A stretch of 64,000 nucleotides of DNA from Nitrospirota bacterium (GCA_016200255.1 JACQFA010000002.1:3807-67806); one strand, 5' to 3'. Counted from the stretch's first letter, positions 35,320 through 61,434 are shown. Translations and numbers: made by a program. The notes: a model not told the origin generated them from the sequence alone.

Positions 35320-35333
35320 TTTGAATAGGGAAT

Positions 35334-35418
35334 GCCGGAGTGGTGGAATGGTAGACACAAGGGACTTAAAATCCCTCGCGCAGAAACGCGCGTGACGGTT
35401 CGAGTCCGTCCTCCGGCA
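35334..35418 (+). tRNA. tRNA-Leu: tRNA-Leu (anticodon UAA), long variable arm, CCA not encoded
   Basis: Acceptor GCCGGAG/CTCCGGC, anticodon arm AGGGA-CTTAAAA-TCCCT, variable stem CGCG..CGCG, T arm GACGG-TTCGAGT-CCGTC, discriminator A. Confidence 0.9.
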
Positions 35419-35513
35419 GACTTTATGTTTAGACGCCGTTTCCCCTTCCCGATTTCCCCAAAACGCTCAAGATAAAAAATGAGGTTATTTGCTTTAGATA
35501 TCACGTTATTGCC

Positions 35514-35542
35514 TTGACAAGATCGGCCCAATCAGGTACATT
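35514..35542 (+). promoter_or_regulatory. candidate sigma-70 promoter at the head of the 25-kb locus
   Basis: TTGACA (35514..35519), a 17-nt spacer, then TACATT (35537..35542), in an AT-rich 170-bp spacer ~48 nt upstream of the ATG at 35590. Confidence 0.4.
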
Positions 35543-35589: not shown

Positions 35590-36999
35590 ATGGGTTGGTT
35601 TTCAAAGAAGACACGCAAGGTACTGGTCTTGGGACTGGATTGTGCCACGCCTCAGCTGGTTTTTGACCGCTGGCTAAAGGATCTTCCCAATATTAAGAGT
35701 CTTGTTGATCGCAGCGTTTACGGGGAAATGAAAAGCTGCGACCCGCCGATTACCGTCCCGGCATGGGCTTCGATGATGTCCAGCAAGAATCCGGGGCGTC
35801 TCGGCATCTACGGTTTCCGAAACCGCGCCGATTATTCCTACGACAAATTGACCATGGCTAATTCCACCTCGGTGAAAGAGGACCGGGTATGGGATATTCT
35901 TTCCCGCGCCGGAAAACAGGTCGCCTTGATCGGGGTTCCCCAGACCTATCCCCCCAAACCGATCAACGGCCATATGGTTACCTGCTTTCTCACCCCCGAT
36001 ATCAGCAGCAACTTTACGTATCCGGCCGAATTCCGGAATGAAGTGCAAAAGGTGGTGGGGGAATACATTCTCGACGTGAAAGATTTCAGGACGGAAAATA
36101 AGGAGCTGATCCTCCGTCAGATTTTTGAAATGACCGAAAAGCGTTTCAAACTGGCCCGGCACATGCTCAAAAACAAGCCGTGGGATTATTTCATGATGGT
36201 CGAAATGGGCGTGGACCGGATCCATCACGGTTTCTGGAAGTACATGGACACGACCCATCGCAAATACGAGGTCGGCAACCCCTTTGAGAACGCCATCTAC
36301 GATTATTACCGGTACCTCGACCGCGAAATCGGGGAAATCCTTTCGCTGATTGATTCCGATACGGTGGTCTTCCTCGTTTCGGATCACGGAGCGAAGAAGA
36401 TGGAGGGCGGAATCTGCATTAACGAGTGGTTCCGCCGGGAGGGCTATTTAAAACTGGCGGAGGATCCCGCGGGCCCGACGCCCATTTCCAGGGCCTCGGT
36501 GGACTGGCGGGAGACGAAGGCCTGGGGCGAGGGCGGTTACTATTCCCGGATTTTTATGAACGTCAAGGGGCGCGAGCCGCACGGCGCGATTGATCCGAAG
36601 GATTATGAAACGGTGCGGACTGAATTAATCGCGAAGCTGGAGGCCCTGACGGACGAAAAGGGGCAGCCCATTGGGACGAAGGTCTATCGGCCGGAGGAGC
36701 TCTATCCCGAGGTGCGGGGCATCGCGCCGGATTTGATCGCCTACTTTGGGAATCTCTATTGGCGCTCGGTGGGAAGCGTGGGTCTCGGGTCGATCCATAC
36801 ATTTGAGAACGATACCGGGCCCGATGATGCGAACCACGCCGAGCACGGAATTTTTGTCATGGCGGATCCAAAGCGGTCGGGAGAGGGCCGGAAACTAACC
36901 GGTCTTCAATTGATGGACATGGCCCCGACCATTCTGAAACTGTTTGACATGCCCGTTCCGCACGACATGGAAGGAAAGGCGGTATCATTTGCAGGCTGA
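35590..36999 (+). CDS. alkaline-phosphatase-superfamily protein, nucleotide pyrophosphatase/phosphodiesterase type (paralog 1)
   Basis: 'VLVLGLDCAT', 'DPPITVPAWASMMSSKNPGRLGIYGF' (nucleophile Thr context) and 'FLVSDHGA' are present. It is homologous to 46518..48245 and 48265..49998. Confidence 0.8.
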   Translation: MGWFSKKTRKVLVLGLDCATPQLVFDRWLKDLPNIKSLVDRSVYGEMKSCDPPITVPAWASMMSSKNPGRLGIYGFRNRADYSYDKLTMANSTSVKEDRVWDILSRAGKQVALIGVPQTYPPKPINGHMVTCFLTPDISSNFTYPAEFRNEVQKVVGEYILDVKDFRTENKELILRQIFEMTEKRFKLARHMLKNKPWDYFMMVEMGVDRIHHGFWKYMDTTHRKYEVGNPFENAIYDYYRYLDREIGEILSLIDSDTVVFLVSDHGAKKMEGGICINEWFRREGYLKLAEDPAGPTPISRASVDWRETKAWGEGGYYSRIFMNVKGREPHGAIDPKDYETVRTELIAKLEALTDEKGQPIGTKVYRPEELYPEVRGIAPDLIAYFGNLYWRSVGSVGLGSIHTFENDTGPDDANHAEHGIFVMADPKRSGEGRKLTGLQLMDMAPTILKLFDMPVPHDMEGKAVSFAG

Positions 37000-37573
37000 T
37001 GCTTTCAAAGGCGTAACGATATGGCTGACCGGCCTGCCCTCGGCCGGAAAAACAACGCTGGCCCATTTGTTGGGAAACAAACTGCGGGAAAGAGGGATCA
37101 CCGGGCTTGAAATTCTGGACGGGGATGTCATTCGGCTGAATCTTTGCAAGGATCTGGGGTTCAGCCAGGAAGACCGGATGACCAATATCCGGCGGATCGC
37201 CTTCGTCTCGCAGCTTTTAACGCGCCACGGCATCATCGTGATCGTCGCCGCAATCTCGCCCTATCGGGAAAGCCGAGATCTCGCCCGTCAGGAGATCAAG
37301 GATTTCGTCGAGGTGTTTGTCAAATGTCCGATGGACGTCCTGATCGGTCGGGATGTGAAAGGGCACTATAAAAAAGCGCTGGCTGGAAATCTCCCCCATT
37401 TCACCGGGGTATCGGACCCGTATGAAGAGCCGCTCCATCCGGAGATCCTGGTCGAAACCGACAAGGAAACGCCCGAGGCGTCGGCCGCAAAGATTCTCGG
37501 TTTTCTCAAAAAAATGGGATACCTGCCCGATTCTTTTTCGACCCTATATGAAAAACGGAAAAGCGCGCCATGA
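36944..37573 (+). CDS. cysC: adenylyl-sulfate (APS) kinase
   Basis: 'GVTIWLTGLPSAGKTTLA' (P-loop), 'LDGDVIRLNLCKDLGFSQEDR' and 'VAAISPYRESR' are present. The start is either the ATG at 36944 (56-nt overlap with the upstream gene) or the TTG at 36989 (11-nt overlap). Confidence 0.9.
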   Translation: MTCPFRTTWKERRYHLQADAFKGVTIWLTGLPSAGKTTLAHLLGNKLRERGITGLEILDGDVIRLNLCKDLGFSQEDRMTNIRRIAFVSQLLTRHGIIVIVAAISPYRESRDLARQEIKDFVEVFVKCPMDVLIGRDVKGHYKKALAGNLPHFTGVSDPYEEPLHPEILVETDKETPEASAAKILGFLKKMGYLPDSFSTLYEKRKSAP

Positions 37574-38448
37574 TCGGCCGACGGATCGATCTTCATGCCC
37601 ACAGCACGGCCTCGGACGGCAGTCTCACCCCGCCGGAACTGATCCGGTATGCCGCCGATAAAAAACTTTCCGCAATGGCCCTGACGGACCACGATTGCGT
37701 GGACGGACTGGATGAGGCCGTGGCCGAAGGGGAGCGGCTGGGCATCGAGGTGATTCCGGCGGTGGAGTTGAGCGCCGACCATCCCGACGGGACGATGCAT
37801 ATCCTGGGTTTTTTCGTGGACCGGCGGCATGAGGGGTTTTGCGGCCGGTTGCGGCGACTACAAGAGGCCCGCCGGGAGAGAAACCCGAAGATCATTCAGA
37901 ATCTTCAGTCGTTGGGATTGAATCTTACCTATGACGAAGTGGTCGCCGCGTCCGGAGGAGGACAGGTCGGCCGGCCCCATTTTGCGAAGGTTCTGGTCCA
38001 GAAGGGGTATGTCTCCTCGATGCAGGAGGCTTTCGAGCGATATCTGAAAAAAGGGGCGCCGGGATATGTCGAAAAGTTCCGGTTCAGTCCTCAGGATGCC
38101 ATCGCCGCGATTCATGAGGCGGGGGGCGTGGCCGTGCTGGCGCATCCGTTTACGTTGTACAAGGACAATTCCGTCCCGCTGGACCCGCTGCTCGAAGGGC
38201 TGTCGCAGGCCGGTCTGGACGGGATAGAAGTGATCTACAGCACTTATTCCGGGGAGCAGACGCGGTATTATCGCGAGCGGGCCGAGAAGTACAACCTGCT
38301 GCCGTCGGGCGGATCCGATTTTCACGGGGCCCATAAACCCGGAATCGATCTCGGGGTCGGTCAGGGCCGTCTCGAGGTTCCCTATGAACTGCTCGAACCG
38401 CTTCGAAAAAAGGCTCAAGGCTATAAAGTCTCGGTTCATGCCGGTTGA
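37570..38448 (+). CDS. PHP-domain phosphoesterase, TrpH/YciV (COG0613) family; candidate 3',5'-nucleoside-bisphosphate (pAp) phosphatase
   Basis: 'IDLHAHSTASDGSLTP', 'LTDHD', 'GGVAVLAHP' and 'GGSDFHG' are present, colinear with E. coli TrpH. There is an ATGA overlap with cysC. Confidence 0.8.
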   Translation: MIGRRIDLHAHSTASDGSLTPPELIRYAADKKLSAMALTDHDCVDGLDEAVAEGERLGIEVIPAVELSADHPDGTMHILGFFVDRRHEGFCGRLRRLQEARRERNPKIIQNLQSLGLNLTYDEVVAASGGGQVGRPHFAKVLVQKGYVSSMQEAFERYLKKGAPGYVEKFRFSPQDAIAAIHEAGGVAVLAHPFTLYKDNSVPLDPLLEGLSQAGLDGIEVIYSTYSGEQTRYYRERAEKYNLLPSGGSDFHGAHKPGIDLGVGQGRLEVPYELLEPLRKKAQGYKVSVHAG

Positions 38449-38498
38449 CGATCGCCGTTGATTCCATTTGGAAGGACCTTATAACGCGGGAGATGATC

Positions 38499-39791
38499 AT
38501 GAGCGTCGATAAACCGTTTGACGTTATTGTTATGGGCGGAGGACCGGGCGGGTCCAGCACCGCCACGTTTTTAGCTCAAAAGGGCCACAAGGTTTTGCTC
38601 CTTGAAAAAGAGCGATTCCCCCGGTTTCATATCGGCGAATCGTTGTTGCCGGCGCTATGGGACATCTGGGACGCGCTCGGAGTCACTGCGGAGCTTGAGG
38701 CGAAGGGTTTTGTGGTGAAGCAGGGCGTCAACTTTGCGATGTTTAATTCGCCCAACGATATCGCCCTTTTGACGGGCGAATACCCCGAGTACTTTCAGCG
38801 CCCGTATGCCTATCATGTCGATCGGGCGAGCTTCGACGAGATCCTTCTGAATCACGCGCGCCGGACCGGCGTCGAGGTTCGGGAGGAATGGACCGTCCAG
38901 GACGTCTTGTTTGAGGGAAGCCGGGCCGTCGGTGTGTTGGCCGGGCCCAACGGACAGGAAGCCCGGCCGATCCGGTCGTCCATCGTCGTGGACGCCACCG
39001 GACGCTCCAGTTTGATCTCGCGAAAGCTCGGCTGGCACAAGCGCGATCCGAAACTCTCCAAAGTCGCCTATTTCACGCATTTTAAAGGCGCCCGCCGCCA
39101 GGAGACGATCGAGATTTTAAAAGACCCTGTTTTATGCCAGGACGACACCTATATGACCGATATCCACACCATCGACGCCGGATGGATCTGGTACATCCCG
39201 CTAACGGATGACATTGTGAGCGTCGGAGCGGTCGTGGATTTGAAACACGACTTCGGAGCGCCGGACCCGCAGACGCGCTTCAACCGTGCGATAGCCAGTT
39301 GCTCCCGAATCCGCGACTGGGTCGGATCGTCGGAACAGCTGATCGAGATGCAGGCCATCTCGAACATTTCATACCTCAGCGATTCGTTTGTCGGAGACGG
39401 CTTCGTCTTGGTCGGAGACGCCTCGATGTTCGTGGACCCGATCTTTTCGGCCGGCGTGACGATCGCGATGCGCGGCGGGATGTTCGCGGCCGATGCGATT
39501 CATGAGGCTTTTCTGGCCGGGGATTTCAGCGCCGCGCGGCTGAAGCCTTATGAGACGAAGATCCGCCATCCGATGGGCCGTATCTTCAAGATGATTTACA
39601 ACTGGTATCACATACTGCAAAACAAGGATGCCGGCAATATTTTTGCCATGTCCCGACAGATGCCGCTTTTGCGCGAGCGGCTGATCGTACTCCTGAGCGG
39701 CGGATATGACAAGGTTGACATGGAGGCTATCCTCAAAGCGACCGAGGGCCAGATGGATCGCCTGACCGCCGGTCCGGGGAAAATGGCCTGA
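38499..39791 (+). CDS. FAD-dependent halogenase-like oxidoreductase (PltA / Trp-halogenase superfamily)
   Basis: 'VMGGGPGGS' (GxGxxG), 'FPRFHIGESLLP', Lys in 'VVKQG', 'GWIWYIPL' (WxWxIP) and 'GDASMFVDPIFSAG' are present. The ATG at 38499 follows GGGAG; the listed 38445 start is a TTG. Confidence 0.75.
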   Translation: MSVDKPFDVIVMGGGPGGSSTATFLAQKGHKVLLLEKERFPRFHIGESLLPALWDIWDALGVTAELEAKGFVVKQGVNFAMFNSPNDIALLTGEYPEYFQRPYAYHVDRASFDEILLNHARRTGVEVREEWTVQDVLFEGSRAVGVLAGPNGQEARPIRSSIVVDATGRSSLISRKLGWHKRDPKLSKVAYFTHFKGARRQETIEILKDPVLCQDDTYMTDIHTIDAGWIWYIPLTDDIVSVGAVVDLKHDFGAPDPQTRFNRAIASCSRIRDWVGSSEQLIEMQAISNISYLSDSFVGDGFVLVGDASMFVDPIFSAGVTIAMRGGMFAADAIHEAFLAGDFSAARLKPYETKIRHPMGRIFKMIYNWYHILQNKDAGNIFAMSRQMPLLRERLIVLLSGGYDKVDMEAILKATEGQMDRLTAGPGKMA

Positions 39792-39815
39792 GTGTAACTG
39801 ACAACGGAGGAGGAG

Positions 39816-42809
39816 ATGGATTTTTCAAAATCTAAGAAACGTGCGTCGGGCGGGGTCATGTTTCATCATCCGGTCGCATTTTGGCTGGGGACCGCTGTCC
39901 TGGTGGCGGGTGTCATCATGCATCTGCCGGACTACTTCAATGCCGGAGGCATGAGCTACCGCATGGCCGGGATGCCTATGTCACAGATCATGCTGATCGG
40001 CATGGCGCTGATTCTCGGTGGAATCGGCCTGGCCGCGTATGGACTGTTTCCGCGGAATTTTGGACGACCGACCGTGGATGTGGGAGAAGCATTTCATATA
40101 CGGGCGATGGACGATGCCCCCCTCACGGCGGCCCACTGGCGGCTGGTGGCGGTGCTCGGAACGGCGCTGATCGTGGACGTGATGAAGCCGGCCACGCTGG
40201 GCTTCGTCGTCCCGGGCTCCAGGGCCGAATACGGGTTGACCGCTTCCCAGGTGGCGTGGTTTCCGTTGGTGGCTCTGACCGGCACGACCATCGGTTCGGT
40301 GATCTGGGGCATGCTGGCGGATCGGCTCGGCCGACGGGGCGCGATCCTGATGGCGGCGCTGATGTTTGTCGGGACGACGATCTGCGGCGCGATGCCTTCG
40401 TTTGCCTGGAATCTATTCATGTGTTTTCTGATGGGACTGTCGGCCGGCGGGCTGTTGCCGATCGTCTTTGCGCTTCTGGCCGAAACGATGCCGGCGAAAC
40501 AGCGCGGTTGGATCACGGTGTTGATCGGCGGAATTGGAACGGTCGGCGGCTATCTCGCGGCCAGTGGAGCCGCCGCATTGTTTGAACCCCATTTCAACTG
40601 GCGGATCCTGTGGTTTTTGAATCTGCCGACCGGCGCTCTCGTGATTGCGCTGAACCGGTTTATTCCGGAATCTCCCCGCTACCTTTTTATGCACGGTCGG
40701 TCTGATGAGGCCCGTGATATGATGCAGAATTTCGGCATCACGGTGGAGAAGGAAAAGGTTGCGGCCCGGTCCATCGCCGCCCATCAAAAGGAGCATTATC
40801 TGACCAGTCTGTCCCGGTTATTCAGCGGGGTCTATCGCAGTCAGACTCTCAGTCTCGTTCTGCTCGGGTTGGCCTGGGGGCTGGTCAACTGGGGCTTCCT
40901 CACCTGGCTTCCGAGTAATTTAAGGGAGATGGGCCTGTCGGCCGGAGTTTCGAACGGAATACTGGCACGGTCCGCGTTGATCGCCATTCCCGGTATCCTA
41001 ATTGTGTCTTGGCTCTACGGTCACTGGAGCAGCAAGAAAAGCATGGTGATGTTTGGCCTGGCGACCGCCACGGTGTTGGTCGGGTTTTCCGTGATCGGCA
41101 GCGATCTTGCTAAAAACACCGGTCTGCTGGTAATGCTCGTCATGGGTCTGCTTGTCTGCAGCAGCGGAGTGATCGCGACGCTGCTTCCCTACAGCGCCGA
41201 GGTTTATCCCACGCGTCTACGGGGTATTGGAGCCGGGGTCACTTCCGCCAGCAGTAAGTTTGGCGGGATCGTTGGTCCTCCTCTCATCGCCGCCGTGATC
41301 ACCCTGTGGCCCGGTCTCACGGTTGCGGCACTGGTGACGGCGGTGCCGATCGCCGTAGCGGCGATCCTGCTCGGCCTTAAAGGATTTGAAACACGGGGCC
41401 GGCGTCTTGAAGAGATCCAGTCTTCCGCCGCCGCAAAACCAAAAGGGTCCAAGAAGCGGGATGTGGTCATTATCGGAGGAGGTCCGGCCGGAGCAGCCAG
41501 CGCGATGTTCCTGGCAAAAGAAGGCCTCCGGTCGCTGATCATCGAGGAGGAACCCTTCCCGCGTTATCACATCGGCGAGTCATTGACCGGCGCCGGCGGC
41601 CAGGTTCTGCGGGAGCTGGGACTGGACGTCGAAATGATCAAACGCAATCATCCGGTCAAGCAGGGGGTCAAAGTCTACGGCAACAACCCGAAGGGCACCT
41701 GGTTTGTACCCGTCATGGGGCGTGACGAAAACTGGAACCTCCATGACTCGGAGACCTGGCAGGTGCGTCGGAGCGAGTTCGACCGCATGATGCTCAACGA
41801 GGCCTCCTCGCGCGGCGCAGACCTTCTTCAGGGAAAGGCGACCCGGCCGCTCCGGAACGAGGACGGCTCGGTGCGGGGCGTGGAAGTCCGAATGGCCGAC
41901 GGCGGCGTTCAGGAGATCGAGTCGGAGGTTTTGCTCGACTGCTCGGGTCAGGCGACCTTCTTGGCGAATGCCGGTGTGACGGGGACCAAACATATTGGCA
42001 ATCACGTCAAGCATATCGCGATCTTCTCGCAGGTGGCCGGCGCCATCCGGGATCAGGGCGGCAGCCGCGACAACCATAAGGACAATACGCTCATTTTTTA
42101 TCAAAAGAAGTTCCACTGGGCCTGGTTCATTCCGCTTGACGACGACATCGTGAGCGTCGGGGTCGTGGTCCCGTCGTCCTATTTCCAGGAAAGGAAGGAG
42201 ACCAAACGGGATTTCCTGATTCGGGAACTGCATGAACTGCACCCGGAGCTCAAGCGTCGCCTTCCGGAAATCAAGCTGGTCGAGGAGGTTCATGCAATTC
42301 CGGACTACACCTATCAGGTGGACGAATTCTGCGGCAAGGGCTTCATCTGTATCGGAGACGCCCACCGTTTTATCGATCCGATCTTTTCTTTCGGCGTGAC
42401 GGTTGCGATGCGGGAGGCCCAGTTCGCGGCGCCGGCGATCAAGGACTATCTTGGGGGCGCCCATCGCGATCGGGCCAATCCGTTTGCCGGGCACCAGCTA
42501 TTGTGCGACAAGGGAGCCGACGTCTTGGAGGACACCATCGACCTGTTCTGGGACCAGCCGACGACCTTCGCATTTTTCGCGCATCAACGCCACAAGGAGA
42601 TGATCACGGACGTTTTTGCCGGGCGGATCTATGAAAGGCAGCCCTCCGCCTCCATCGTGGATGTGCGGAAGCTCCTCAATCGCCAGCAGGATCGTGAACG
42701 GTTTTACGAAAATCCGGACCTCTACTCGGTTCCGATCGGTTCGCGCTACCATCCTGAACGCGCATCCATTTGGGAGCCGAATTCTTCAATGGCCTCCGCG
42801 GAAGAATAG
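39816..42809 (+). CDS. fusion protein: MFS permease (N-terminal ~535 aa) + FAD-dependent halogenase-like domain (C-terminal ~450 aa)
   Basis: A single 997-codon ORF preceded by a GGAGGAGGAG RBS. MFS marks are 'GMLADRLGRRG', 'IPESPRYLF' and 'FETRGRRLEEI'. The FAD-domain marks are 'IIGGGPAGAAS', 'FPRYHIGESL', 'VKQG', 'HWAWFIPL' and 'GDAHRFIDPIFSFG'. Confidence 0.8.
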   Translation: MDFSKSKKRASGGVMFHHPVAFWLGTAVLVAGVIMHLPDYFNAGGMSYRMAGMPMSQIMLIGMALILGGIGLAAYGLFPRNFGRPTVDVGEAFHIRAMDDAPLTAAHWRLVAVLGTALIVDVMKPATLGFVVPGSRAEYGLTASQVAWFPLVALTGTTIGSVIWGMLADRLGRRGAILMAALMFVGTTICGAMPSFAWNLFMCFLMGLSAGGLLPIVFALLAETMPAKQRGWITVLIGGIGTVGGYLAASGAAALFEPHFNWRILWFLNLPTGALVIALNRFIPESPRYLFMHGRSDEARDMMQNFGITVEKEKVAARSIAAHQKEHYLTSLSRLFSGVYRSQTLSLVLLGLAWGLVNWGFLTWLPSNLREMGLSAGVSNGILARSALIAIPGILIVSWLYGHWSSKKSMVMFGLATATVLVGFSVIGSDLAKNTGLLVMLVMGLLVCSSGVIATLLPYSAEVYPTRLRGIGAGVTSASSKFGGIVGPPLIAAVITLWPGLTVAALVTAVPIAVAAILLGLKGFETRGRRLEEIQSSAAAKPKGSKKRDVVIIGGGPAGAASAMFLAKEGLRSLIIEEEPFPRYHIGESLTGAGGQVLRELGLDVEMIKRNHPVKQGVKVYGNNPKGTWFVPVMGRDENWNLHDSETWQVRRSEFDRMMLNEASSRGADLLQGKATRPLRNEDGSVRGVEVRMADGGVQEIESEVLLDCSGQATFLANAGVTGTKHIGNHVKHIAIFSQVAGAIRDQGGSRDNHKDNTLIFYQKKFHWAWFIPLDDDIVSVGVVVPSSYFQERKETKRDFLIRELHELHPELKRRLPEIKLVEEVHAIPDYTYQVDEFCGKGFICIGDAHRFIDPIFSFGVTVAMREAQFAAPAIKDYLGGAHRDRANPFAGHQLLCDKGADVLEDTIDLFWDQPTTFAFFAHQRHKEMITDVFAGRIYERQPSASIVDVRKLLNRQQDRERFYENPDLYSVPIGSRYHPERASIWEPNSSMASAEE

Positions 42810-42835
42810 ATGGAACCGGCTTCTTAAGGTTGAAA

Positions 42836-43978
42836 ATGGATTTTTCCTTTACACAGGAACAGCGTCAGTTAAAGCGGTCCTTGGTCGATTTTGCCAAGGG
42901 CGCCTTGAATGACGACCTGGCTAAACGGGATCAAGCGCGGGAGTTTTCAAGGGACCTCTGGAAACGGTGCGCCGATTTTGGGATACAGGGCCTTCCGATC
43001 CCGGCCGAGTGGGGCGGCCGCGGTCTGGACATGGTCAGCGTCTTTTATGCGCTTGAAGGGCTGGGGTACGGCTGCCGGGATAACGGTCTCGCCTTCTCGA
43101 TGCAGGCCCATCTTTGGGGTGTCTCGATGCCTCTGTCGCTCTTCGGGACCCCGGTTCAGAAGAAAAGTTATCTTCCAAAACTTTGCGATGGGAGGATGAT
43201 CGGTTCGATCGCGATGGCCGAGCCGGAGTCGGGATCGGATGCATTTACTCTGAAAACGCGCGCCGTGAAAAAAGGGGCGGGGTATGTTTTAAACGGATCG
43301 AAGACCCTGATCACGAACGCCCCGGTGGCCGATCTGTATCTTGTCTTTGCGGCGGTCGAGCCGCCTGATCCGTCCGGCGTGACGGCATTTTTGGTCGAAC
43401 GGGGCGCGCCGGGTCTGACGGTCGGCCGGACGCTGGAAACGATGGGGCTGCGCACCTCCCCCCTGGGCGAACTGAGTTTCAAGGACTGCGAGGTTCCGGC
43501 CGGGAATCTGCTCGGCAAACCGGGCGACGGGACGGTCATCTTCACCGGCGCCATGGAGCTGGAGCGGTGCGGCATCCCGGCCAGTCATGTCGGCGCGATG
43601 GAGCGGATTCTGGAGCGCTGCATCGCCTATGCGCGCGAACGCCGGCAGTTCGGAAAGCCGATCGGCGATTTTCAGGCCGTTTCCCATAAGATCGCCGAGA
43701 TGAAAATCCGGCTGGAGACGTCGCGCTTGCTGGTTTACCGGGCCGCCTGGCTCAAGAGCCAGGAGCGGCATGCCATTCTGGAGGCCTCGATCGCCAAGGC
43801 GCATGTCGGAGACGCCTATATCCAGACCTGTCTAGATGCGGTCCAGATTTACGGCGGCCGCGGTTATCTGGTCGAATTTGAACTGGAGCGGGAGCTGCGG
43901 GATGCGATCCCGAGCCGGATTTATTCCGGAACCTCCGAAATCCAGAAGAAGATCATTGCGGGCTGGCTGGGATTGTAG
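42836..43978 (+). CDS. acyl-CoA-dehydrogenase-family flavoprotein, probably an acyl/aminoacyl-carrier-protein dehydrogenase
   Basis: 380 aa with ACAD domains ('IAMAEPESGSD', 'NGSKTLITNA', 'FGKPIGDFQAVSHKIAEM', 'IYGGRGY'). The ATG is at 42836 (MDFSFTQEQ..). It lies immediately upstream of the adenylation enzyme and carrier protein. Confidence 0.8.
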   Translation: MDFSFTQEQRQLKRSLVDFAKGALNDDLAKRDQAREFSRDLWKRCADFGIQGLPIPAEWGGRGLDMVSVFYALEGLGYGCRDNGLAFSMQAHLWGVSMPLSLFGTPVQKKSYLPKLCDGRMIGSIAMAEPESGSDAFTLKTRAVKKGAGYVLNGSKTLITNAPVADLYLVFAAVEPPDPSGVTAFLVERGAPGLTVGRTLETMGLRTSPLGELSFKDCEVPAGNLLGKPGDGTVIFTGAMELERCGIPASHVGAMERILERCIAYARERRQFGKPIGDFQAVSHKIAEMKIRLETSRLLVYRAAWLKSQERHAILEASIAKAHVGDAYIQTCLDAVQIYGGRGYLVEFELERELRDAIPSRIYSGTSEIQKKIIAGWLGL

Positions 43979-43982
43979 ACGG

Positions 43983-45587
43983 ATGAATCCTCAAATAAAC
44001 AAAAATTTTCTACTGCAGCATCTCTTGACCTCCGGCGCGCTTCGCGATCCGGATGCGATGGCGGTGGTCTGCCGGGGCGCGCGATTGACCTACGGCCAGC
44101 TGGAGCGATCTTCCGACAGGATGGCCCGGCTCCTTTGTGAGGAAGGCGTGCGGCCGGGCGACCGTGTCGGAATATTTTTCCCCAAATCGGCCGAGACCCT
44201 GACCGCGATCTTCGGCATCTTGAAGGCCGGGGCGGTTTATGTGCCGATCGATCCCAAGGGACCCGCTCAGCGCGCGGCCTACATCATCCGGGACTGCGGA
44301 ATTCAAGTCCTGTTGACCGCGGCCAAGCAGAAAAGTCTTCTGACCCAGATCCTTCGCGAGGCGGCGCCCCTGCGGCTGCTGCTCTTCATGGATACTGCGG
44401 CCTCGATGGAATCGACGGACAGCCGTTCCGGTCGAGTCCTGGCCTGGCCGGAGGCGCAGGCGGCCGTGACGGAGGGTCGACCGGATCTTCCGACCATCCA
44501 TACGGACCTGGCCTACATTCTGTACACCTCCGGCTCGACCGGCCGTCCCAAGGGCGTCATGCTGAGTCATCTGAATGCGATGACTTTTGTGGACTGGGCC
44601 GTAAGTTATTTTGAGCTCCGGCCGAAGGATCGTCTTTCCAATCATGCCCCGATGCATTTTGATCTGTCCGTTTTCGACCTCTTTGCGTCCTTCAAGGCCG
44701 GCGCGTCCGTCTTTCCGATTCCGGAGGAGATCACCTTTTTCCCGATTCAGGTGGCCCAGTTCATTCAAGATCATCGCCTCACGGTCTGGTATTCGGTGCC
44801 CTCGGCCTTGATCCAGTTGCTCCAGCACGGGGAACTCCAACGGTTTGATCTTTCCGGACTCCGGTCCGTTCTGTTTGCCGGCGAGGTTTTTCCGGTGAAG
44901 TATCTTCGAATGCTGAAGGCCGCTCTCCCCGCCGCCAAGCTGTTCAACCTGTACGGACCGACCGAAACGAATGTATGCACGGTCCACCCGGTGCAGGATC
45001 TCGCGGCGGATCAAGCCATCCCGATCGGCAAGGCCTGTGCCAACGCGGCCGTCGTTGCGATGAATGAAAATAACGAACCGATCCAGGCGGGCGAAACAGG
45101 AGAGCTGTGCGTCAGCGGCCCGACCGTGATGAAGGGCTACTGGGGGCATCCGGATCTCACGGCCGCTGTCCTGGTTCCCGGTCCGGCGGAAGGCGGCGGT
45201 ACGGAGAGCGTTTACCGCACGGGCGATTTGGTGACGATCAATGAAAAGGGCGAGTACCTGTTTATCGGAAGGCGCGATCATATGATCAAGAGCCGCGGCT
45301 TCCGGATCGAGCTGGGCGAGATCGAGGCGGCGCTGGTCGACCATCCGGGGGTACAGGAGGCGGCGGTCGTCGCGATTCCGGATGAGGAAGCGGGCAACCG
45401 GATCAAGGCCGTGATTGTTCCGACCGCGGTCGCGACCTTGACGCGGGAGGAGATCGAAACGCACTGCGCGAAGAGACTCCCCCGCTACATGATTCCGGAG
45501 ATCATCGAGTTCTGCAAGGCGCTGCCGCGGACTTCGACCGGAAAAATGGATAAAACGATACTGGTAAAGGAAACAGTCCGGTCCTGA
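43983..45587 (+). CDS. stand-alone adenylation enzyme (ANL superfamily, amino-acid-adenylation type)
   Basis: Core motifs 'LAYILYTSGSTGRPKGV', 'HFDLSVFD', 'NLYGPTET', 'YRTGDLV', 'GRRDHMIKSRGFRIELGEIE' and 'PRTSTGKMDK' are present. There is no fused C or T domain. The ATG is at 43983. Confidence 0.85.
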   Translation: MNPQINKNFLLQHLLTSGALRDPDAMAVVCRGARLTYGQLERSSDRMARLLCEEGVRPGDRVGIFFPKSAETLTAIFGILKAGAVYVPIDPKGPAQRAAYIIRDCGIQVLLTAAKQKSLLTQILREAAPLRLLLFMDTAASMESTDSRSGRVLAWPEAQAAVTEGRPDLPTIHTDLAYILYTSGSTGRPKGVMLSHLNAMTFVDWAVSYFELRPKDRLSNHAPMHFDLSVFDLFASFKAGASVFPIPEEITFFPIQVAQFIQDHRLTVWYSVPSALIQLLQHGELQRFDLSGLRSVLFAGEVFPVKYLRMLKAALPAAKLFNLYGPTETNVCTVHPVQDLAADQAIPIGKACANAAVVAMNENNEPIQAGETGELCVSGPTVMKGYWGHPDLTAAVLVPGPAEGGGTESVYRTGDLVTINEKGEYLFIGRRDHMIKSRGFRIELGEIEAALVDHPGVQEAAVVAIPDEEAGNRIKAVIVPTAVATLTREEIETHCAKRLPRYMIPEIIEFCKALPRTSTGKMDKTILVKETVRS

Positions 45588-45622
45588 ATCGACCGGGTTG
45601 AAACGGAGGAGGCCGGAGATCC

Positions 45623-45898
45623 ATGATGGACAGTGCAATCATCGAAGAGAAGATCAAAACCTATATAATGACGGACCTGGCGCGCGATCACTCCGGGTCG
45701 GATTTGAAACGGGACGAATCCCTGATCGACCGGGGAATTATCGATTCGCTCGGGCTTTTCAAGCTGATCGCATTTATAGAGGAGGAATTCGGGGTTGCGG
45801 TCGAGCCCCAGGAGGTCCGAACCGATAATTTTGAAACCCTGGCGATGGTATCCGACCTGGTCGGGAAGAAAATCGCCAGGAAGTCCGCCCGTTCGTAG
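45623..45898 (+). CDS. acyl/peptidyl carrier protein
   Basis: 91 aa with 'LIDRGIIDSLGLFKLIAFIEEEFG', the DSL phosphopantetheine-attachment motif. It has a GGAGGAGG RBS. Confidence 0.85.
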   Translation: MMDSAIIEEKIKTYIMTDLARDHSGSDLKRDESLIDRGIIDSLGLFKLIAFIEEEFGVAVEPQEVRTDNFETLAMVSDLVGKKIARKSARS

Positions 45899-45921: not shown

Positions 45922-46521
45922 ATGTTTGATACCATCCGAGGGGATCTGGGAAGAAAGCGTCAGACGTATATCGTCCGGGCGATGGATCAGACCTGGTTCA
46001 ACCGGAACATCAAGATTTATCTTCAGCAGGGCAGTATCGCGGTGGCCGTTTTCCGGTTCGGGCAGTGGGTCCAACGGCTTCGAATTCCGGTGCTGAAGCA
46101 GATCCTGTTCACGGTCTACTACATTCTGAATCTGGCCGTGATCATTTTTTTCGGCATCAACATCCAGCTCAGCGCCAACATCGGCCGGGGGTTTATTGTC
46201 CATAATTATTCCGGGGTCTTTCTGGGACGGATTACGATCGGAGAGAACTGCATCGTCAATCAGGGCGTGACGATCGGGAACATCCGCGGCGAGCCGGGCC
46301 GTCCGGTTCTTGGAAATAACGTCTATATTGGGGTCAGCGCCGTTGTATTGGGAAACGTGAAAATCGGAAACAATGTCGTGATCGGGGCCAACTCGCTGGT
46401 GATCACGAACGTGCCGGACAACTGCACCGTGGTGGGGGTGCCGTCCCGGATTGTTTCCCGTCGGCCGACCAGTCCCTACTTGAAATTTGGAAATGAACCG
46501 GCGGCGGGGTCCAAGGCATGA
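45922..46521 (+). CDS. left-handed-beta-helix O-acyltransferase (serine-acetyltransferase / WcaB-like)
   Basis: Hexapeptide repeats are present ('IGENCIVNQGVTIGN..VLGNNVYIGVSAVVLGNVKIGNNVVIGANSLV'). The N-terminal helical region is typical of EPS-cluster SAT-like enzymes. Confidence 0.8.
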   Translation: MFDTIRGDLGRKRQTYIVRAMDQTWFNRNIKIYLQQGSIAVAVFRFGQWVQRLRIPVLKQILFTVYYILNLAVIIFFGINIQLSANIGRGFIVHNYSGVFLGRITIGENCIVNQGVTIGNIRGEPGRPVLGNNVYIGVSAVVLGNVKIGNNVVIGANSLVITNVPDNCTVVGVPSRIVSRRPTSPYLKFGNEPAAGSKA

Positions 46522-48245
46522 GCGCATCCCCGTCCTCAAAACCGCGCGTCCTGATCATCGGGCTGGATGGGGCCACCCTAGATCTCGTGGTCCCCTGGGC
46601 CTCCGATGGAAAACTGCCTCACATGGCCCGCCTCCTGAAGGAGGGCACATGGGGACCGCTTCAGTCTCCCATCCCCCCCATCACGCCGCCGTCCTGGAGC
46701 AGCTTCATGACCGGGATGAATCCCGGAAAGCACGGCGTATTTCATTTCATTGAACCGCAGCCCGGTAGTTACGGGATGCGGTACATCAATGCGGCCCACC
46801 GCAAGGCCCGCACGATCTGGAGCATCCTTTCGGACGCTGGCCTGACCGTCGGCGTAATGAATCTTCCTTTTACCTATCCTCCCGAGGCCGTCAACGGATT
46901 CATGATTTCGGGAATGGATACCCCGGATGAAACCAGCGACTTCGTCCATCCGCGGGCGCTCCGGGCCGAGCTGGAGCGGACCGTGGGGAAAATCAATCTA
47001 GACATCCGTTACCTCGGCTTTATGTCAACGGATGAGCGACGCGCGGCCGTTCTAAAAGAGCTGGCCCAGATCGATGAGCAGCGCACCCGGATGGCGCTCT
47101 ATCTTCTGGAGAAGCATCCGGCCGATGTCATGATGTTCGCCTACACCTCCTCCGATACGGCCCACCACTATTTCTGGCAGTTCATGGATCCGCAGCACCC
47201 GTTTTACGATCCGGTGGGGGCCAAAAAATTCGGAGGGGCCGTTCTGGAAATATACCAGCGGCTGGACCGCGCCGTCGGTCTTCTTCTGGAGCGGGTTTCC
47301 GAGGAGACGTCGGTCATCCTCGTCTCCGATCACGGGGGCGGACCCGTGTCGGACAAGGTCTTATACCTTAACCGTTTCCTGGCCAACATTGGATTGCTGG
47401 CGTACAAGACCAAGGGCCCGCTTGGCAACTGGGCGTGGCTGCAACGGCCGGTCCGGTATCTCTATGGATGGCTGCGCAGCTCGCTCTCTTCCAAACAGAA
47501 AAGCCGGCTCGCCAGGCTCTTCCCGATACTGCGGCGACGGTTGGAGGCCTCCTACACCGCCTTCAGTCAGATTGATTGGTCGCGGACCCAGGCCTTTTGT
47601 AATGAAGTCCTGATGTCGCCCCCCAATATCTGGATCAATCTCAAAGGCGACAAACCCCAGGGGATTGTGGAGTCGGGTCAGTATGATTCGCTGGTGGGCC
47701 GGATCATCGCTCATTTGTACGAGCTCAAGGATCCCCGCACCGGGCGGCAGCTCATCCGGAAAGTTTACCGGCGCGACGAGATCTATCAAGGCCCTTATGT
47801 AAACTCGGCTCCCGATCTGACCTTGTGCTGGTGGGAAAGGGACTCCTTCGTCACCAAGCCGAGCTTTCCGGAGGATCGGGGAAAACCGGTCGTCCAGATC
47901 CGGTCGGAGGGATTTCAGGACGGCTCGGAATGGAGCGGAACGCACACGCTGGACGGGATCCTGCTGCTCAAAGGGAAAGTGTTCCGATCGGGCGGCGCCG
48001 CGAAGGACAGCCGGATCATCGATCTCGCCCCGACGCTGCTTCATATACTGGGTCTGCCGGTTCCGGAGGAGATGGACGGCCGCGTGCTGACCGAGTTATT
48101 GGACGAAACCTTCCGGGCGGGGCACCCCATTCAATACCAAAAGAGCACGGGCGGCGACAGCCGTCCGGCTGGTGACGGCAGTTATTCGGAAGAGGATGCC
48201 GAAAAAATTGAAAAGCGCCTGCAGGGGCTTGGCTACATTGATTAA
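46518..48245 (+). CDS. alkaline-phosphatase-superfamily protein, NPP/phosphodiesterase type (paralog 2)
   Basis: 'VLIIGLDGAT', 'PPITPPSWSSFMTGMNPGKHGVF' and 'LVSDHGG' are present, with C-terminal tail 'YSEEDAEKIEKRLQGLGYID'. There is an ATGA overlap with the upstream gene. Confidence 0.8.
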   Translation: MSASPSSKPRVLIIGLDGATLDLVVPWASDGKLPHMARLLKEGTWGPLQSPIPPITPPSWSSFMTGMNPGKHGVFHFIEPQPGSYGMRYINAAHRKARTIWSILSDAGLTVGVMNLPFTYPPEAVNGFMISGMDTPDETSDFVHPRALRAELERTVGKINLDIRYLGFMSTDERRAAVLKELAQIDEQRTRMALYLLEKHPADVMMFAYTSSDTAHHYFWQFMDPQHPFYDPVGAKKFGGAVLEIYQRLDRAVGLLLERVSEETSVILVSDHGGGPVSDKVLYLNRFLANIGLLAYKTKGPLGNWAWLQRPVRYLYGWLRSSLSSKQKSRLARLFPILRRRLEASYTAFSQIDWSRTQAFCNEVLMSPPNIWINLKGDKPQGIVESGQYDSLVGRIIAHLYELKDPRTGRQLIRKVYRRDEIYQGPYVNSAPDLTLCWWERDSFVTKPSFPEDRGKPVVQIRSEGFQDGSEWSGTHTLDGILLLKGKVFRSGGAAKDSRIIDLAPTLLHILGLPVPEEMDGRVLTELLDETFRAGHPIQYQKSTGGDSRPAGDGSYSEEDAEKIEKRLQGLGYID

Positions 48246-48264: not shown

Positions 48265-49998
48265 ATGCCGGAAGGATCGCCACAGGGACGCAGCGTCTTC
48301 ATCCTTGGATTGGACGGGGGGACGTATGATTTGATTCTGCCGTGGGTCCAAGAGGGGCGCCTGCCGAATCTGGGGCGGCTGATTCAATCGGGCAGCCATG
48401 CGGAGCTGGCCTCGACCGTTCCGCCGATGACGCCGCCCGGATGGACGTCGTTCATGACCGGGATGAATCCAGGAAAACACGGCATCTTCGATTTTACGGA
48501 GCGGGAGCCGGGGCGCTACGAGGTCAAGATCATGAATGCGACCGACCGGCAGGCCCGCACGATCTGGTCGCTCATGAGTCAGGCCGGGAAACGGGTGGCC
48601 TCCATCGGCGTGCCGCTCACCTATCCCCCGGAGCCGGTCAACGGCGTGATGATCAGCGGGTTTGATTCGCCGGTGCTCGACCGGCGGATCATGCATCCGC
48701 CCGAACTGTTCGACGAACTGGAGAAGTCTGTAGGGGGATATCCCGTTTCGCCCGATTTCGTCCGGCATGCGGTGCGCGGGGATCTGAAACGGGCGGTCGA
48801 AATCATCTGCGAGACGATGGATCAAAAGGCCCGGGCGGTGGAATATCTTCTCAAACGGGAGGCCTGGGATTGTTTTATGCTGGTGTTCGGCGAGACGGAC
48901 GCCTGCATCCATTATTTCTGGGGACACCACGATCCTGCCTCGCCCCACCGCCCCCGGCATCCGGATCCGGGACCGGATCCGATCCGGACGGTGTACGAAA
49001 AGGTGGACGAGATTCTCGGCCGGTTGTTACCGTTGCTTCCGCCCGATTCCGGCATGATGCTCATTTCGGATCACGGGACCGGCGGCGCGGGACGCAAGAT
49101 GGTCTATCTGAACCGGTGGCTTGAAGCGGAGGGTTTTCTCGCCTTCCGGGCCGGCTCCGGACGCGGTTGTCTCCGGACGATGAACTGGCGGTTGTTGGAA
49201 GAAGCCCGGTCCTGGGCCCGCGCCGTCCTGCCGCAATCGATCCTCAAGCGGTTGAGATACCGTTCGGGTCTTGGCGCCCGGCTGGAGTCCAATCAGCGGT
49301 TTTCGGGACTGGATTGGAAGCGGACCGCGGTCTATTCCGATGAAACGCCGCATTATCCGAATCTGTGGGTCAATCTGAAGGGGCGGGAGCCGCAGGGGGT
49401 CGTGAATCCGGGCGAGGAGTACGAGTCGCTCCGGGAGCGGATCCTTGAGCGGTTGTCCGAATGGCGGGACCCCGAGACCCGGCGGCCGTTGATCAAACGG
49501 GCGTACAAACGGGAAGAGGTTTACCACGGCCCCTGTCTGGAGAGGGCGCCGGATATACTGATCGCCTGGAATCTGGACGGAAACTATTCCTATCTGAACG
49601 GCTCCAGTCTCATGGCCTCGGGCAGGGCCCCGGTGGTTGCGATCGATCCGACCGGTTTCTGGAGATCCAAATCAATGCTGAACCGGGGAGGCAGTCACCG
49701 GGAGAACGGAATCTTCCTGATCCGCGGCGAAGGAGTTCAACGAGGGCATCGCCTGCTCAAGGCCGGCATCGCGGACATGGCGCCCACGCTGCTTTACTGG
49801 ATGGGTCTTCCCGTTCCGTCCGACATGGACGGGACGGTATTGACGGAGGCGTTTGAGGATTCCTACCGGCGGGGTCATCCGGTTCATCGCGACGGGATTT
49901 CCGGCCAGGAGACCCAGGACCGCGCGCGGCTGGTTTATTCCGAAGAGGAAACGAAGAAGGTCGAAGAACGGTTGCAAAGCCTGGGGTATATCGAATGA
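48265..49998 (+). CDS. alkaline-phosphatase-superfamily protein, NPP/phosphodiesterase type (paralog 3)
   Basis: 'VFILGLDGGT', 'PPMTPPGWTSFMTGMNPGKHGIF' and 'LISDHGT' are present, with C-terminal tail 'YSEEETKKVEERLQSLGYIE'. It is colinear with paralog 2. Confidence 0.8.
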   Translation: MPEGSPQGRSVFILGLDGGTYDLILPWVQEGRLPNLGRLIQSGSHAELASTVPPMTPPGWTSFMTGMNPGKHGIFDFTEREPGRYEVKIMNATDRQARTIWSLMSQAGKRVASIGVPLTYPPEPVNGVMISGFDSPVLDRRIMHPPELFDELEKSVGGYPVSPDFVRHAVRGDLKRAVEIICETMDQKARAVEYLLKREAWDCFMLVFGETDACIHYFWGHHDPASPHRPRHPDPGPDPIRTVYEKVDEILGRLLPLLPPDSGMMLISDHGTGGAGRKMVYLNRWLEAEGFLAFRAGSGRGCLRTMNWRLLEEARSWARAVLPQSILKRLRYRSGLGARLESNQRFSGLDWKRTAVYSDETPHYPNLWVNLKGREPQGVVNPGEEYESLRERILERLSEWRDPETRRPLIKRAYKREEVYHGPCLERAPDILIAWNLDGNYSYLNGSSLMASGRAPVVAIDPTGFWRSKSMLNRGGSHRENGIFLIRGEGVQRGHRLLKAGIADMAPTLLYWMGLPVPSDMDGTVLTEAFEDSYRRGHPVHRDGISGQETQDRARLVYSEEETKKVEERLQSLGYIE

Positions 49999-51308: not shown

Positions 51309-51438
51309 CCCTTGCGGAAGGGACCTTCTTCTCGAAACGATATCGGAGATTTTCGGTCGGCCCGTATGGCGGGCTGAACCCGAGGACTGATTGCAACGCC
51401 GGGCGGAGTTCGATATACTATCCGTTGCCGGGTAGGAG

Positions 51439-52008
51439 ATGGGGTTCGTCATGGCTTCACCCGTTGGACATTCGCTGGCCGGGGTTTCGCTCTATCTTTT
51501 CCTGACCCGAAAGACGGACGGACCGGCGATCCGGGCCGATTGGAAAACGGCGGCCCTTCTGGTGGCCGCCGCCAATCTTCCGGACATTGATTTTCTCATC
51601 GGGTATGCGGTCTACGGCGATCCGAACCGCATCCACGGCGGGTGGACGCATGCCGGCCTGTTTGCCGCTGCGGCGGCCTGGGTTCTGACCCGGCTGCATC
51701 GGTTCCAACCCTCCGTCGGCACGGCGGGTTGGGCCTACTTTTTTGCGGTTGCATCCCATGGGATTATGGATTTCTTTACCGGTCCGACGATCGGTCTTTA
51801 TCCCTCCTACGGGGTGGCCTTTCTCTGGCCGTTTCACGGCGAAAAATTGAAGTCGCCGGTGACATTCTTTCAGGGCCCGCGGCACCGCAGTCTGGACCAG
51901 TTGCTGACCGTGGACAATCTTTGGGGGATGATGTACGAACTTCTTCTATGGATTCCCCTGGTATGGGGGCTGATCATATTTCTCAGGAAAAACCGGAGAA
52001 CCGAATGA
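51439..52008 (+). CDS. membrane-bound metal-dependent hydrolase (YdjM / DUF457 family)
   Basis: 'SPVGHSLAG', 'PDIDFLIGY', 'GGWTHA' and 'SHGIMDFFTG' are spread over 4-5 TM helices. The start is either 51439 or 51451 (MASPVGH..). Confidence 0.7.
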   Translation: MGFVMASPVGHSLAGVSLYLFLTRKTDGPAIRADWKTAALLVAAANLPDIDFLIGYAVYGDPNRIHGGWTHAGLFAAAAAWVLTRLHRFQPSVGTAGWAYFFAVASHGIMDFFTGPTIGLYPSYGVAFLWPFHGEKLKSPVTFFQGPRHRSLDQLLTVDNLWGMMYELLLWIPLVWGLIIFLRKNRRTE

Positions 52009-61335: not shown

Positions 61336-61434
61336 GAGAACATCGTACCGGATGCCCAGAAGGGCTGTCAAGCAGGCCGGGCGAGGGGGGTTGACTCTAA
61401 AGGCGTTTTTCTTGTACAGTATTGCTACGTTATT

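Follow-up and report, generated by a model that had tools for sequence, protein, structure and literature searches.

An alkaline phosphatase-superfamily gene coupled to genes for APS kinase and a candidate pAp phosphatase in a Nitrospirota glycan locus, and its possible role in sulfation

In Pyrococcus yayanosii, the cluster PYCH_17520-17560 contains the genes encoding ATP sulfurylase (sat), a DHH-type phosphatase for 3'-phosphoadenosine 5'-phosphate (pAp), a type I phosphodiesterase/nucleotide pyrophosphatase (NPP) and the adenosine 5'-phosphosulfate (APS) kinase (cysC), in a host with no identified sulfotransferase and no identified reductase of 3'-phosphoadenosine 5'-phosphosulfate (PAPS); removal of pyrophosphate by the NPP was put forward there as a speculation (Jin et al., 2021; PMC8268124). 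In Halobacterium salinarum, Agl30 (VNG1056C) and Agl31 (VNG1057C), one of them membrane-bound and the other soluble, were identified as N-glycan sulfotransferases by deletion and heterologous expression, with the sulfate donor not defined (Zaretsky et al., 2025; PMC11980604). The stretch of DNA analysed here, referred to as the window, comprises 64,000 nt of a Nitrospirota bacterium (GCA_016200255.1 JACQFA010000002.1:3807-67806; genome of 2.26 Mb, 96.8% complete, labelled G000), and contains a locus that begins with a gene of the alkaline phosphatase (AlkP) superfamily, AlkP1, followed by cysC and by a gene encoding a PHP-family phosphoesterase.

It is well supported that this trio makes and recycles PAPS for sulfation and not for assimilation. 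AlkP1 itself may be the PAPS-consuming sulfuryl-transfer enzyme of a dedicated non-canonical sulfation pathway, which is the reading favoured here, if tentatively. The dedicated module for PAPS synthesis and pAp recycling proposed in the initial annotation of the window is borne out by the genome, in which no PAPS reductase and no known PAPS consumer were found and in which ATP sulfurylase (Sat) is encoded together with an AprAB-type APS reductase.

The AlkP1-CysC-PHP trio and sulfur metabolism of the genome

The three genes at the head of the locus are as follows.

35590-36999, + strand: AlkP1, PF01663 (NPP fold), 469 aa, Pfam score 178.7 bits
36989-37573 (alternative start 36944), + strand: CysC, APS kinase (PF01583, TIGR00455)
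37570-38448, + strand: PHP-family phosphoesterase of the Cv1693/TrpH group, candidate pAp (3',5'-bisphosphate) phosphatase (PF02811)

They share the same orientation and have overlapping ends, at exactly the positions first annotated. AlkP1 and cysC overlap by 56 nt if cysC starts at TTG 36944 and by 11 nt if it starts at TTG 36989; the latter codon, which is in frame, is preceded by GGAAGGAAAGG and yields a normal APS-kinase N-terminus before the P-loop GLPSAGKTT, is the likely start. The sequence ATGA at 37570-37573 is common to the stop of cysC and the start of the PHP gene. The same gene order, AlkP1-CysC-PHP, was also detected in an Acidobacteriota locus (L083) and in a genome of the same genus (G282).

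CysC is an APS kinase according to its P-loop and its scores (219.2 bits for TIGR00455, cut-off 138.7; 194 bits for PF01583), and its gene is the sole strong APS-kinase gene of the genome. A second APS_kinase match on contig C17 (21 bits, in a 521-aa frame) is too weak and was not counted as an APS kinase.

Regarding the PHP protein, the best NCBIfam model is NF041577 (3',5'-nucleoside bisphosphate phosphatase) with 222.7 bits, below the equivalog cut-off of 400, and the model for RNase RNM/AM scores nearly as high (198.7 bits), for which reasons pAp is proposed as a candidate substrate only. The best match among solved structures is 2YB1 (Cv1693), aligned over the full length (residues 5-263, E 1.6e-44), in comparison with which the window protein keeps the metal motifs HAHS..SDG, TDHD, VELS, HILG, AHP and GSDFH as well as the arginines aligned to Cv1693 R99, R102 and R134, residues that we take to act in pAp binding. 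No CysQ/SuhB-type gene (PF00459) was found in the genome, while this family was recovered in 14 of 14 control genomes, and the PHP enzyme is therefore the sole pAp phosphatase candidate of a known family that was seen. In other bacteria, CysQ is often encoded in one cluster with cysDNC, and that no CysQ-type gene was found here would also be in line with AlkP1 hydrolysing an adenosine sulfate or bisphosphate nucleotide, either as an alternative pAp phosphatase or as a hydrolase of PAPS or APS that keeps the pool small; cleavage of nucleotide phosphoanhydrides is within the repertoire of NPP enzymes, and a universal substrate would fit the conservation of AlkP1 described below. Such a role is nevertheless very unlikely, given that a Cv1693-like PHP enzyme is already present in the operon and that destroying the donor beside its maker, or in a protein fused to it, would be futile.

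Regarding sulfate assimilation, the single Sat of the genome is encoded on another contig (C26), which answers the initial query about sat elsewhere. It belongs to an operon of the order Rrf2 - TauE - AprA - AprB-like - sulfite reductase::TusA - Sat (L089:10227-17412), in which AprA reaches 768 bits (cut-off 557) and AprB is an AprB-like ferredoxin. A PAPS reductase (CysH) was not found in the genome; the only PF01507 match, on contig C18, belongs to a TtuA-like PP-loop protein. Since CysH is lacking and Sat lies in an operon with AprAB and sulfite reductase, APS is expected to be reduced directly, and PAPS is not needed for assimilation. The proposal that cysC serves assimilatory sulfate reduction and stands next to AlkP1 by chance, for which it would speak that CysC is the only APS kinase of the genome, is thus contradicted by the presence of an AprAB-type route and by the recurrence of the AlkP1 adjacency in about nine phyla, and has hardly any probability left. 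As a separate observation, this operon combines an assimilatory APS-reductase route with dissimilatory-type AprAB in a small Nitrospirota genome.

Canonical sulfotransferases were looked for in and near the locus as well as in the whole genome. Every large open reading frame (ORF) of 33.9-64 kb was without a match to Sulfotransfer_1-5 or Stf0 at E <= 0.01, and six-frame searches of the genome gave no match to Sulfotransfer_1-5, Stf0 or Arylsulfotrans, these negatives being less secure for Sulfotransfer_2, Sulfotransfer_5 and Stf0, as positive controls were recovered only for Sulfotransfer_1, Sulfotransfer_3 and Arylsulfotrans. The initial statement that the locus has no recognisable sulfotransferase therefore stands for the locus and extends to the genome, which has a demand for PAPS other than assimilation and, among the families searched, no known enzyme that would consume it.

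AlkP1 and its genomic links to sulfate activation

AlkP1 and the two further AlkP paralogs of the locus, AlkP2 and AlkP3, are all members of PF01663 (153.8 bits for AlkP2 and 136.5 bits for AlkP3; cut-off 23), whereas the sulfatase family PF00884 (cut-off 25) scores only 20.2 bits for AlkP1 and 18.4 bits for AlkP2 and does not match AlkP3. The Thr nucleophile ascribed to these paralogs at the outset is confirmed by the motif PPITVPAW and by metal-ligand motifs in all three. Assigned by motif correspondence with NPPs, the putative metal ligands of AlkP1 are D17, D209, H213, D265, H266 and H416 and the nucleophile is Thr55; these seven residues are invariant in AlkP1-3 and each is at least 98% conserved in 241 AlkP1 relatives. 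Over these 241 sequences, 100 of the 469 positions of AlkP1 are at least 98% identical, including the metal ligands, Thr55 and eight arginines, and a cluster of invariant arginines (R77, R79, R210, R320, R328, R392) is specific to the family. The residue after the nucleophile is Val56 in AlkP1 and presumably Phe in the NPP of Xanthomonas (Xac NPP).

AlkP1 has neither a signal peptide nor a membrane segment, its N-terminus leading straight into the first core strand, and it is predicted to be cytoplasmic. The AlphaFold2 model (predicted local distance difference test score 97, predicted template modelling score 0.94) has ENPP6, ENPP1 and Xac NPP as its nearest solved folds (probability 1.00, template modelling score 0.55-0.60, E ~1e-17, 12-15% identity). 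No solved structure of a close relative was found in the fold search, a sequence comparison with solved structures gave only marginal choline-sulfatase matches (E ~0.004), and the ESM Atlas returned only generic alkaline phosphatase family clusters.

The AlkP1 family comprises 14,919 clusters at 50% identity (E <= 0.001). Close orthologs, with 55-70% identity, are distributed across about nine phyla and were detected in Nitrospirota, Verrucomicrobiota, Chloroflexota, Acidobacteriota, Planctomycetota (Brocadia) and Gemmatimonadota as well as in Zixibacteria, Eisenbacteria, Melainabacteria, Binatia and Actinomycetes. Only 2 of 250 sampled Nitrospirota genomes have the ortholog, and the module is therefore patchy in distribution and probably mobile.

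Investigation of 80 AlkP1 loci from species-representative genomes revealed CysC as the immediate neighbour of the AlkP1 ortholog in 31 loci by ORF clustering (30 by tblastn) and Sat as a neighbour in 17, mostly in the order Sat-AlkP1-CysC. APS kinase is also encoded in 24 of the 25 AlkP1-bearing genomes in which CysC is not adjacent, and in 55 of 56 overall. Gene fusions show the same association: among the longer matches, all 120 that were listed (the best 120 of 265 at E <= 1e-30) are Sat::AlkP1 fusions, and the fusions CysC::AlkP1, AlkP1::pyruvate-kinase barrel::Sat and AlkP1::pyruvate kinase were found in addition. In three Sat::AlkP1 fusion loci that were examined, CysC is encoded downstream of the fusion and no canonical sulfotransferase was found; two of the three lie among genes for family 4 glycosyltransferases (GT4) and methyltransferases, and one of these two has further PF01663 genes. 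The pairing of this AlkP subfamily with cysC, first seen in the window, is thus not a matter of local chance, and for AlkP1 the link is strongly supported by recurrent adjacency and natural fusions. The pyruvate-kinase fusions suggest that the sulfate-activation module includes its own means of regenerating ATP. In two of these proteins (P0325 and P0379), the pyruvate-kinase barrel joined to the AlkP1-family domain lacks the C-terminal domain that pyruvate kinases usually have, and in one case ATP sulfurylase follows.

Further neighbours in the 80 loci are genes encoding membrane sulfatase-like proteins, UDP-glucose dehydrogenase, PMT_2 proteins and flippases. A gene for a CobW/COG0523-type metallochaperone stands beside the AlkP1 ortholog in 11 of the 80 loci (for example at L032:8054-9028), and one is also found upstream of an AlkP1 ortholog in a Nitrospiria contig, which is in keeping with a zinc-dependent enzyme to which the metal has to be delivered.

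The association with Sat bears on a serious alternative that the initial annotation, otherwise upheld as regards the module and the missing sulfotransferase, had not considered, namely that AlkP1 helps PAPS synthesis by hydrolysing the pyrophosphate formed by Sat, or by otherwise pulling the unfavourable Sat reaction, and forms a PAPS factory with CysC. In that case the sulfotransferases proper would be AlkP2 and AlkP3, working like Agl30 and Agl31, or another protein. Pyrophosphate removal is also what was guessed for PYCH_17550, the NPP gene of the archaeal sat-DHH-NPP-cysC cluster (PMC8268124). The many Sat::AlkP1 fusions, and the AlkP1::pyruvate kinase(::Sat) fusions, which mirror the four-enzyme synthesis of PAPS in the laboratory, point in this direction, as do the very high conservation of AlkP1, which suits universal small substrates, and the lack of any match to the family I pyrophosphatase PF00719 in the genome. 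However, the genome does encode an H+-pyrophosphatase (contig C51, 904 bits), the operon of Sat, AprAB and sulfite reductase on C26 is without AlkP1, AlkP1 tracks CysC more than Sat in the 80 loci, and its neighbourhoods consist of glycan genes rather than assimilation genes. With evidence on both sides, a helper role of this kind is rather unlikely, while deserving to be taken seriously.

A second group of neighbours concerns sugar phosphates. In Chloroflexota, an operon of the order AlkP1-CysC-Sat-HddA-like GHMP kinase-GmhA-like isomerase was observed (L087:9956-15037 and L020:9995-14896), divergent from a gene for myo-inositol-1-phosphate synthase, and in a Chthoniobacterales locus an HddA-like kinase takes the place of CysC beside the AlkP1 ortholog (L007:10001-12524). 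More distant relatives include AlkP1::GT2 (family 2 glycosyltransferase) and nucleotidyltransferase::AlkP1 fusions. AlkP1 might accordingly act on sugar phosphates or nucleotide sugars, as a GmhB-like heptose bisphosphate phosphatase, a phosphotransferase or a nucleotide-sugar pyrophosphatase, with the adjacency of CysC reflecting co-regulation only; its position as the first gene of a conserved glycan cassette, the HddA-like kinase in place of CysC, the Chloroflexota operon and the fusions in more distant relatives would all be compatible with this. Such an explanation leaves more than 100 ATP sulfurylase fusions, the CysC fusion and the presence of APS kinase in nearly all AlkP1-bearing genomes without a reason, and the HddA/GmhA association is confined to two phyla, so that we consider it clearly unlikely. 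Within a sulfation pathway, the HddA and GmhA neighbours may instead point to heptose phosphate as the acceptor.

Regarding the sulfation pathway favoured here, the initial annotation had named the AlkP paralogs collectively as candidates for an unconventional transfer step. The link of AlkP1 to sulfate activation speaks for this, whereas the paralogs are not equivalent, and we infer sulfo-transfer, like every catalytic step assigned here to AlkP1, AlkP2 and AlkP3. The trio would form the donor side of a pathway sulfating a surface glycan or glycolipid that the remaining genes of the locus assemble and export. APS would be supplied by the unlinked Sat of the assimilatory operon and converted to PAPS by CysC; AlkP1, with the two-metal NPP fold and Thr55, would take the sulfuryl group from PAPS, probably via a sulfo-Thr intermediate, and hand it onward, and the PHP enzyme would remove pAp, the inhibitory by-product, by hydrolysis to AMP and phosphate. 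AlkP2 and AlkP3, encoded beside GT4, would be responsible for the step specific to the acceptor. The conservation of AlkP1 is far too high for recognition of variable glycans, and its acceptor is therefore probably universal; it could be a small sugar-phosphate, a nucleotide-sugar, or the tyrosine of an ERLxxLGY tail on AlkP2 and AlkP3 (see below).

Several points weigh against this pathway. No member of PF01663 is known from biochemical work to be a sulfotransferase, and NPP-type active sites classically attack phosphorus rather than sulfur. The extreme conservation and the fusions with Sat and pyruvate kinase are explained at least equally well by a role in assisting PAPS synthesis, and the HddA-like kinase and GmhA neighbours, or the nucleotidyltransferase and GT2 fusions, could point to sugar-phosphate chemistry. 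Of 30 genomes in which AlkP1 and CysC are encoded side by side, Sulfotransfer_1 and Sulfotransfer_3 are both missing from 16, which speaks for the pathway; roughly every second genome with the pair does carry canonical sulfotransferases, and AlkP1 is for this reason not simply a replacement for them. Furthermore, the tail is also present on certain AlkP1 orthologs and in 15 Nitrospirota genomes that have no close AlkP1 ortholog.

AlkP2, AlkP3, the C-terminal tail and the rest of the locus

Upstream and downstream of the trio, the following features were annotated.

35333-35419, + strand: tRNA-Leu(TAA), detected by ARAGORN, directly upstream of the locus
35514-35542, + strand: candidate sigma-70-like promoter TTGACA-17-TACATT (consensus scan only, 10/12), 47 nt before the AlkP1 start
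38497-45898, + strand: halogenase-like protein, major facilitator superfamily (MFS)::halogenase-like protein, acyl-CoA dehydrogenase (ACAD), adenylating enzyme and carrier protein (halopyrrole-type cassette)
45922-46521, + strand: hexapeptide-repeat acyltransferase (core glycan cassette)
46518-48245, + strand: AlkP2, PF01663 paralog, with tail YSEEDAEKIEKRLQGLGYID at 48174-48239
48265-49998, + strand: AlkP3, PF01663 paralog, with tail YSEEETKKVEERLQSLGYIE at 49927-49992
49995-55931, + strand: GT4 glycosyltransferase, HlyD-type adaptor, outer-membrane factor and Wzx-type flippase

Further downstream, the locus has genes for tetratricopeptide repeat (TPR) and PMT_2 proteins and other glycan genes, and from 35.6 kb onwards the genes of the window all lie on the + strand, with the sole exception of a minus-strand gene resembling glycoside hydrolase family 42 (60295-61461). 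For the first halogenase-like ORF, a possible TTG start at 38445 would overlap the stop of the PHP gene (TTGA); a start at ATG 38497 or 38503, after GGGAG, is more likely.

AlkP2 and AlkP3 are 33% identical to AlkP1. They retain the catalytic core, have gained an insert of ~45 aa and a C-terminal tail, and have lost the AlkP1-specific arginines R77, R79, R210, R320 and R392. Orthologs of AlkP3 directly precede GT4 in several phyla. The three paralogs are thus not equivalent, AlkP1 being tied to Sat and CysC and the divergent, tail-bearing AlkP2 and AlkP3 to GT4.

Regarding conservation of the locus, a Chthoniobacterales cassette (L007) has the order AlkP1 ortholog-HddA-like kinase-AlkP-hexapeptide-repeat acyltransferase-GT4-adaptor-outer-membrane factor-flippase-TPR, and because of this synteny AlkP1, AlkP2/3 and the export genes are considered a conserved core cassette. 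Two genomes of the same genus as the window were compared. In G282 the whole locus is present in the same gene order; its proximal genes are 69-93% identical to those of the window (most of them 77-93%), and AlkP2, AlkP3 and GT4 only 54-62%. In G281 (contig C131; L099 and L100), AlkP1 is 70% identical and has no CysC, PHP or halopyrrole genes alongside; the core cassette lies 29 kb from AlkP1 on the other strand, and CysC is encoded on a separate contig. From the arrangement in G281 it follows that the block at 36.9-45.9 kb behaves as an accessory insert.

The tail of AlkP2 and AlkP3 consists of an acidic stretch, Y-S-x-E-E-E, followed by ERLxxLGY[ILV] at or near the C-terminus, and is conserved while the linker before it varies. 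Within the genome of the window it was found on AlkP2 and AlkP3 only. In other genomes it is present on AlkP2/3-like paralogs of Verrucomicrobia, Binatia/Deltaproteobacteria and Actinomycetes, on true PF00884 sulfatase-like membrane proteins adjoining AlkP1 orthologs in other phyla, and on 23 of the neighbouring CysC proteins, where it is added after the natural C-terminal helix. It also occurs on 4 of 120 close AlkP1 orthologs, on CysC::AlkP1 and AlkP1::pyruvate kinase fusions, and as a free-standing ORF of 41-43 aa in four Binatia-type loci (L027:12354-12482, L032, L041 and L077); in L027, the one locus checked for this, the ATG of the free ORF overlaps the stop of the CobW gene. Among sampled Nitrospirota genomes, a 22-position profile of the tail matched all three that have an AlkP1 ortholog and 15 of the 248 that have none, a comparison that is only indicative, as the kin genomes are not independent. 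The tail is therefore not strictly a tag of AlkP1 partners, given its presence on some AlkP1 orthologs and in the 15 genomes without one, and its fusion to several enzymes of one pathway, together with the free-standing forms, lets it behave like a carrier or a common docking tag. Docking to TPR proteins, which are encoded in the locus, was considered and is not favoured, as Brocadia loci with AlkP1 and a tail-bearing CysC have no TPR gene nearby.

A pyrophosphatase role of AlkP1 offers no reason why CysC and the putative terminal enzymes should have this tail in common. A bolder form of the sulfation pathway gives the tail a part of its own: AlkP1 would represent a new structural class of PAPS-dependent sulfuryl transferase that, instead of sulfating the glycan, places sulfate on the tyrosine of a portable 20-residue carrier tail, and the AlkP- or sulfatase-fold enzymes bearing the tail would use the tethered aryl sulfate as donor in sulfating their specific glycan acceptors. 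We regard this proposal as doubtful, and equally its carrier-based logic, which is drawn by analogy with acyl or biotinyl carriers.

Implications and comparison with known systems

Surface glycans bearing sulfate are widespread, and many of the bacteria and archaea able to form PAPS are without a recognisable sulfotransferase or PAPS reductase. As judged from gene order, the gap is filled by the AlkP1 family, with repeated fusion to ATP sulfurylase and APS kinase. If AlkP1 transfers sulfate, it would constitute a new enzyme class and mechanism, would explain sulfation of the Agl30/Agl31 type and would allow sulfated envelopes to be recognised from the genomes of uncultured lineages, among them anammox bacteria, Nitrospirota and Chloroflexota. 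Should it instead be a helper of pyrophosphatase type, it would be an undescribed accessory of a textbook pathway, and enzymes of the AlkP2/3 type would become the sulfotransferase candidates.

Regarding the individual proteins, AlkP1 has the fold, two-metal site and Thr nucleophile of the NPPs (Xanthomonas NPP 2GSN, ENPP1, ENPP3 and ENPP6), and differs from them in its low sequence identity, in being ~90 residues larger and apparently cytoplasmic rather than secreted, in its own invariant arginine cluster and in its genomic ties to Sat and CysC. The PHP protein of the window resembles Cv1693 of Chromobacterium violaceum (2YB1, a PHP-type 3',5'-adenosine bisphosphate phosphatase) over its full length and in its motifs, but falls short of the equivalog cut-off, and the RNase RNM/AM model scores it almost equally; E. 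coli TrpH/YciV (RNase AM, 7UG9) belongs to the same family. Agl30 and Agl31 are likewise AlkP-superfamily proteins in place of canonical sulfotransferases and constitute the sole genetic precedent; compared by description, however, they are sulfatase-like proteins of the arylsulfatase family, whereas AlkP1-3 belong to PF01663 and do not reach the PF00884 threshold. Agl7 (HVO_2046) of Haloferax was considered as a PF01663 precedent and was not used, as the literature examined assigns it no family; the hexose sulfated in that system may be sulfoquinovose. A search of the literature on COG3379, or on Sat or CysC together with type I phosphodiesterases, yielded nothing useful.

At the level of gene clusters, canonical bacterial sulfation clusters (cysDN-cysC-cysQ with Sulfotransfer genes) resemble the window in combining donor synthesis and by-product recycling within a glycan or lipid locus, but the locus and genome analysed here have no Sulfotransfer-family match and an AlkP-fold enzyme occupies that slot. 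The archaeal cluster of P. yayanosii is closer, with an NPP-type AlkP gene beside cysC and a pAp phosphatase gene, a likeness in gene content. It differs in that the window is bacterial and its phosphatase candidate is of PHP type and not of DHH type, in that the cluster of the window is without sat, and in that the module of the window heads a glycan-export locus with two more AlkP paralogs and a halopyrrole cassette. Thus, this type of cluster has already been published for archaea, and the window contains a bacterial variant of it with a PHP-type recycling enzyme and an unlinked Sat.

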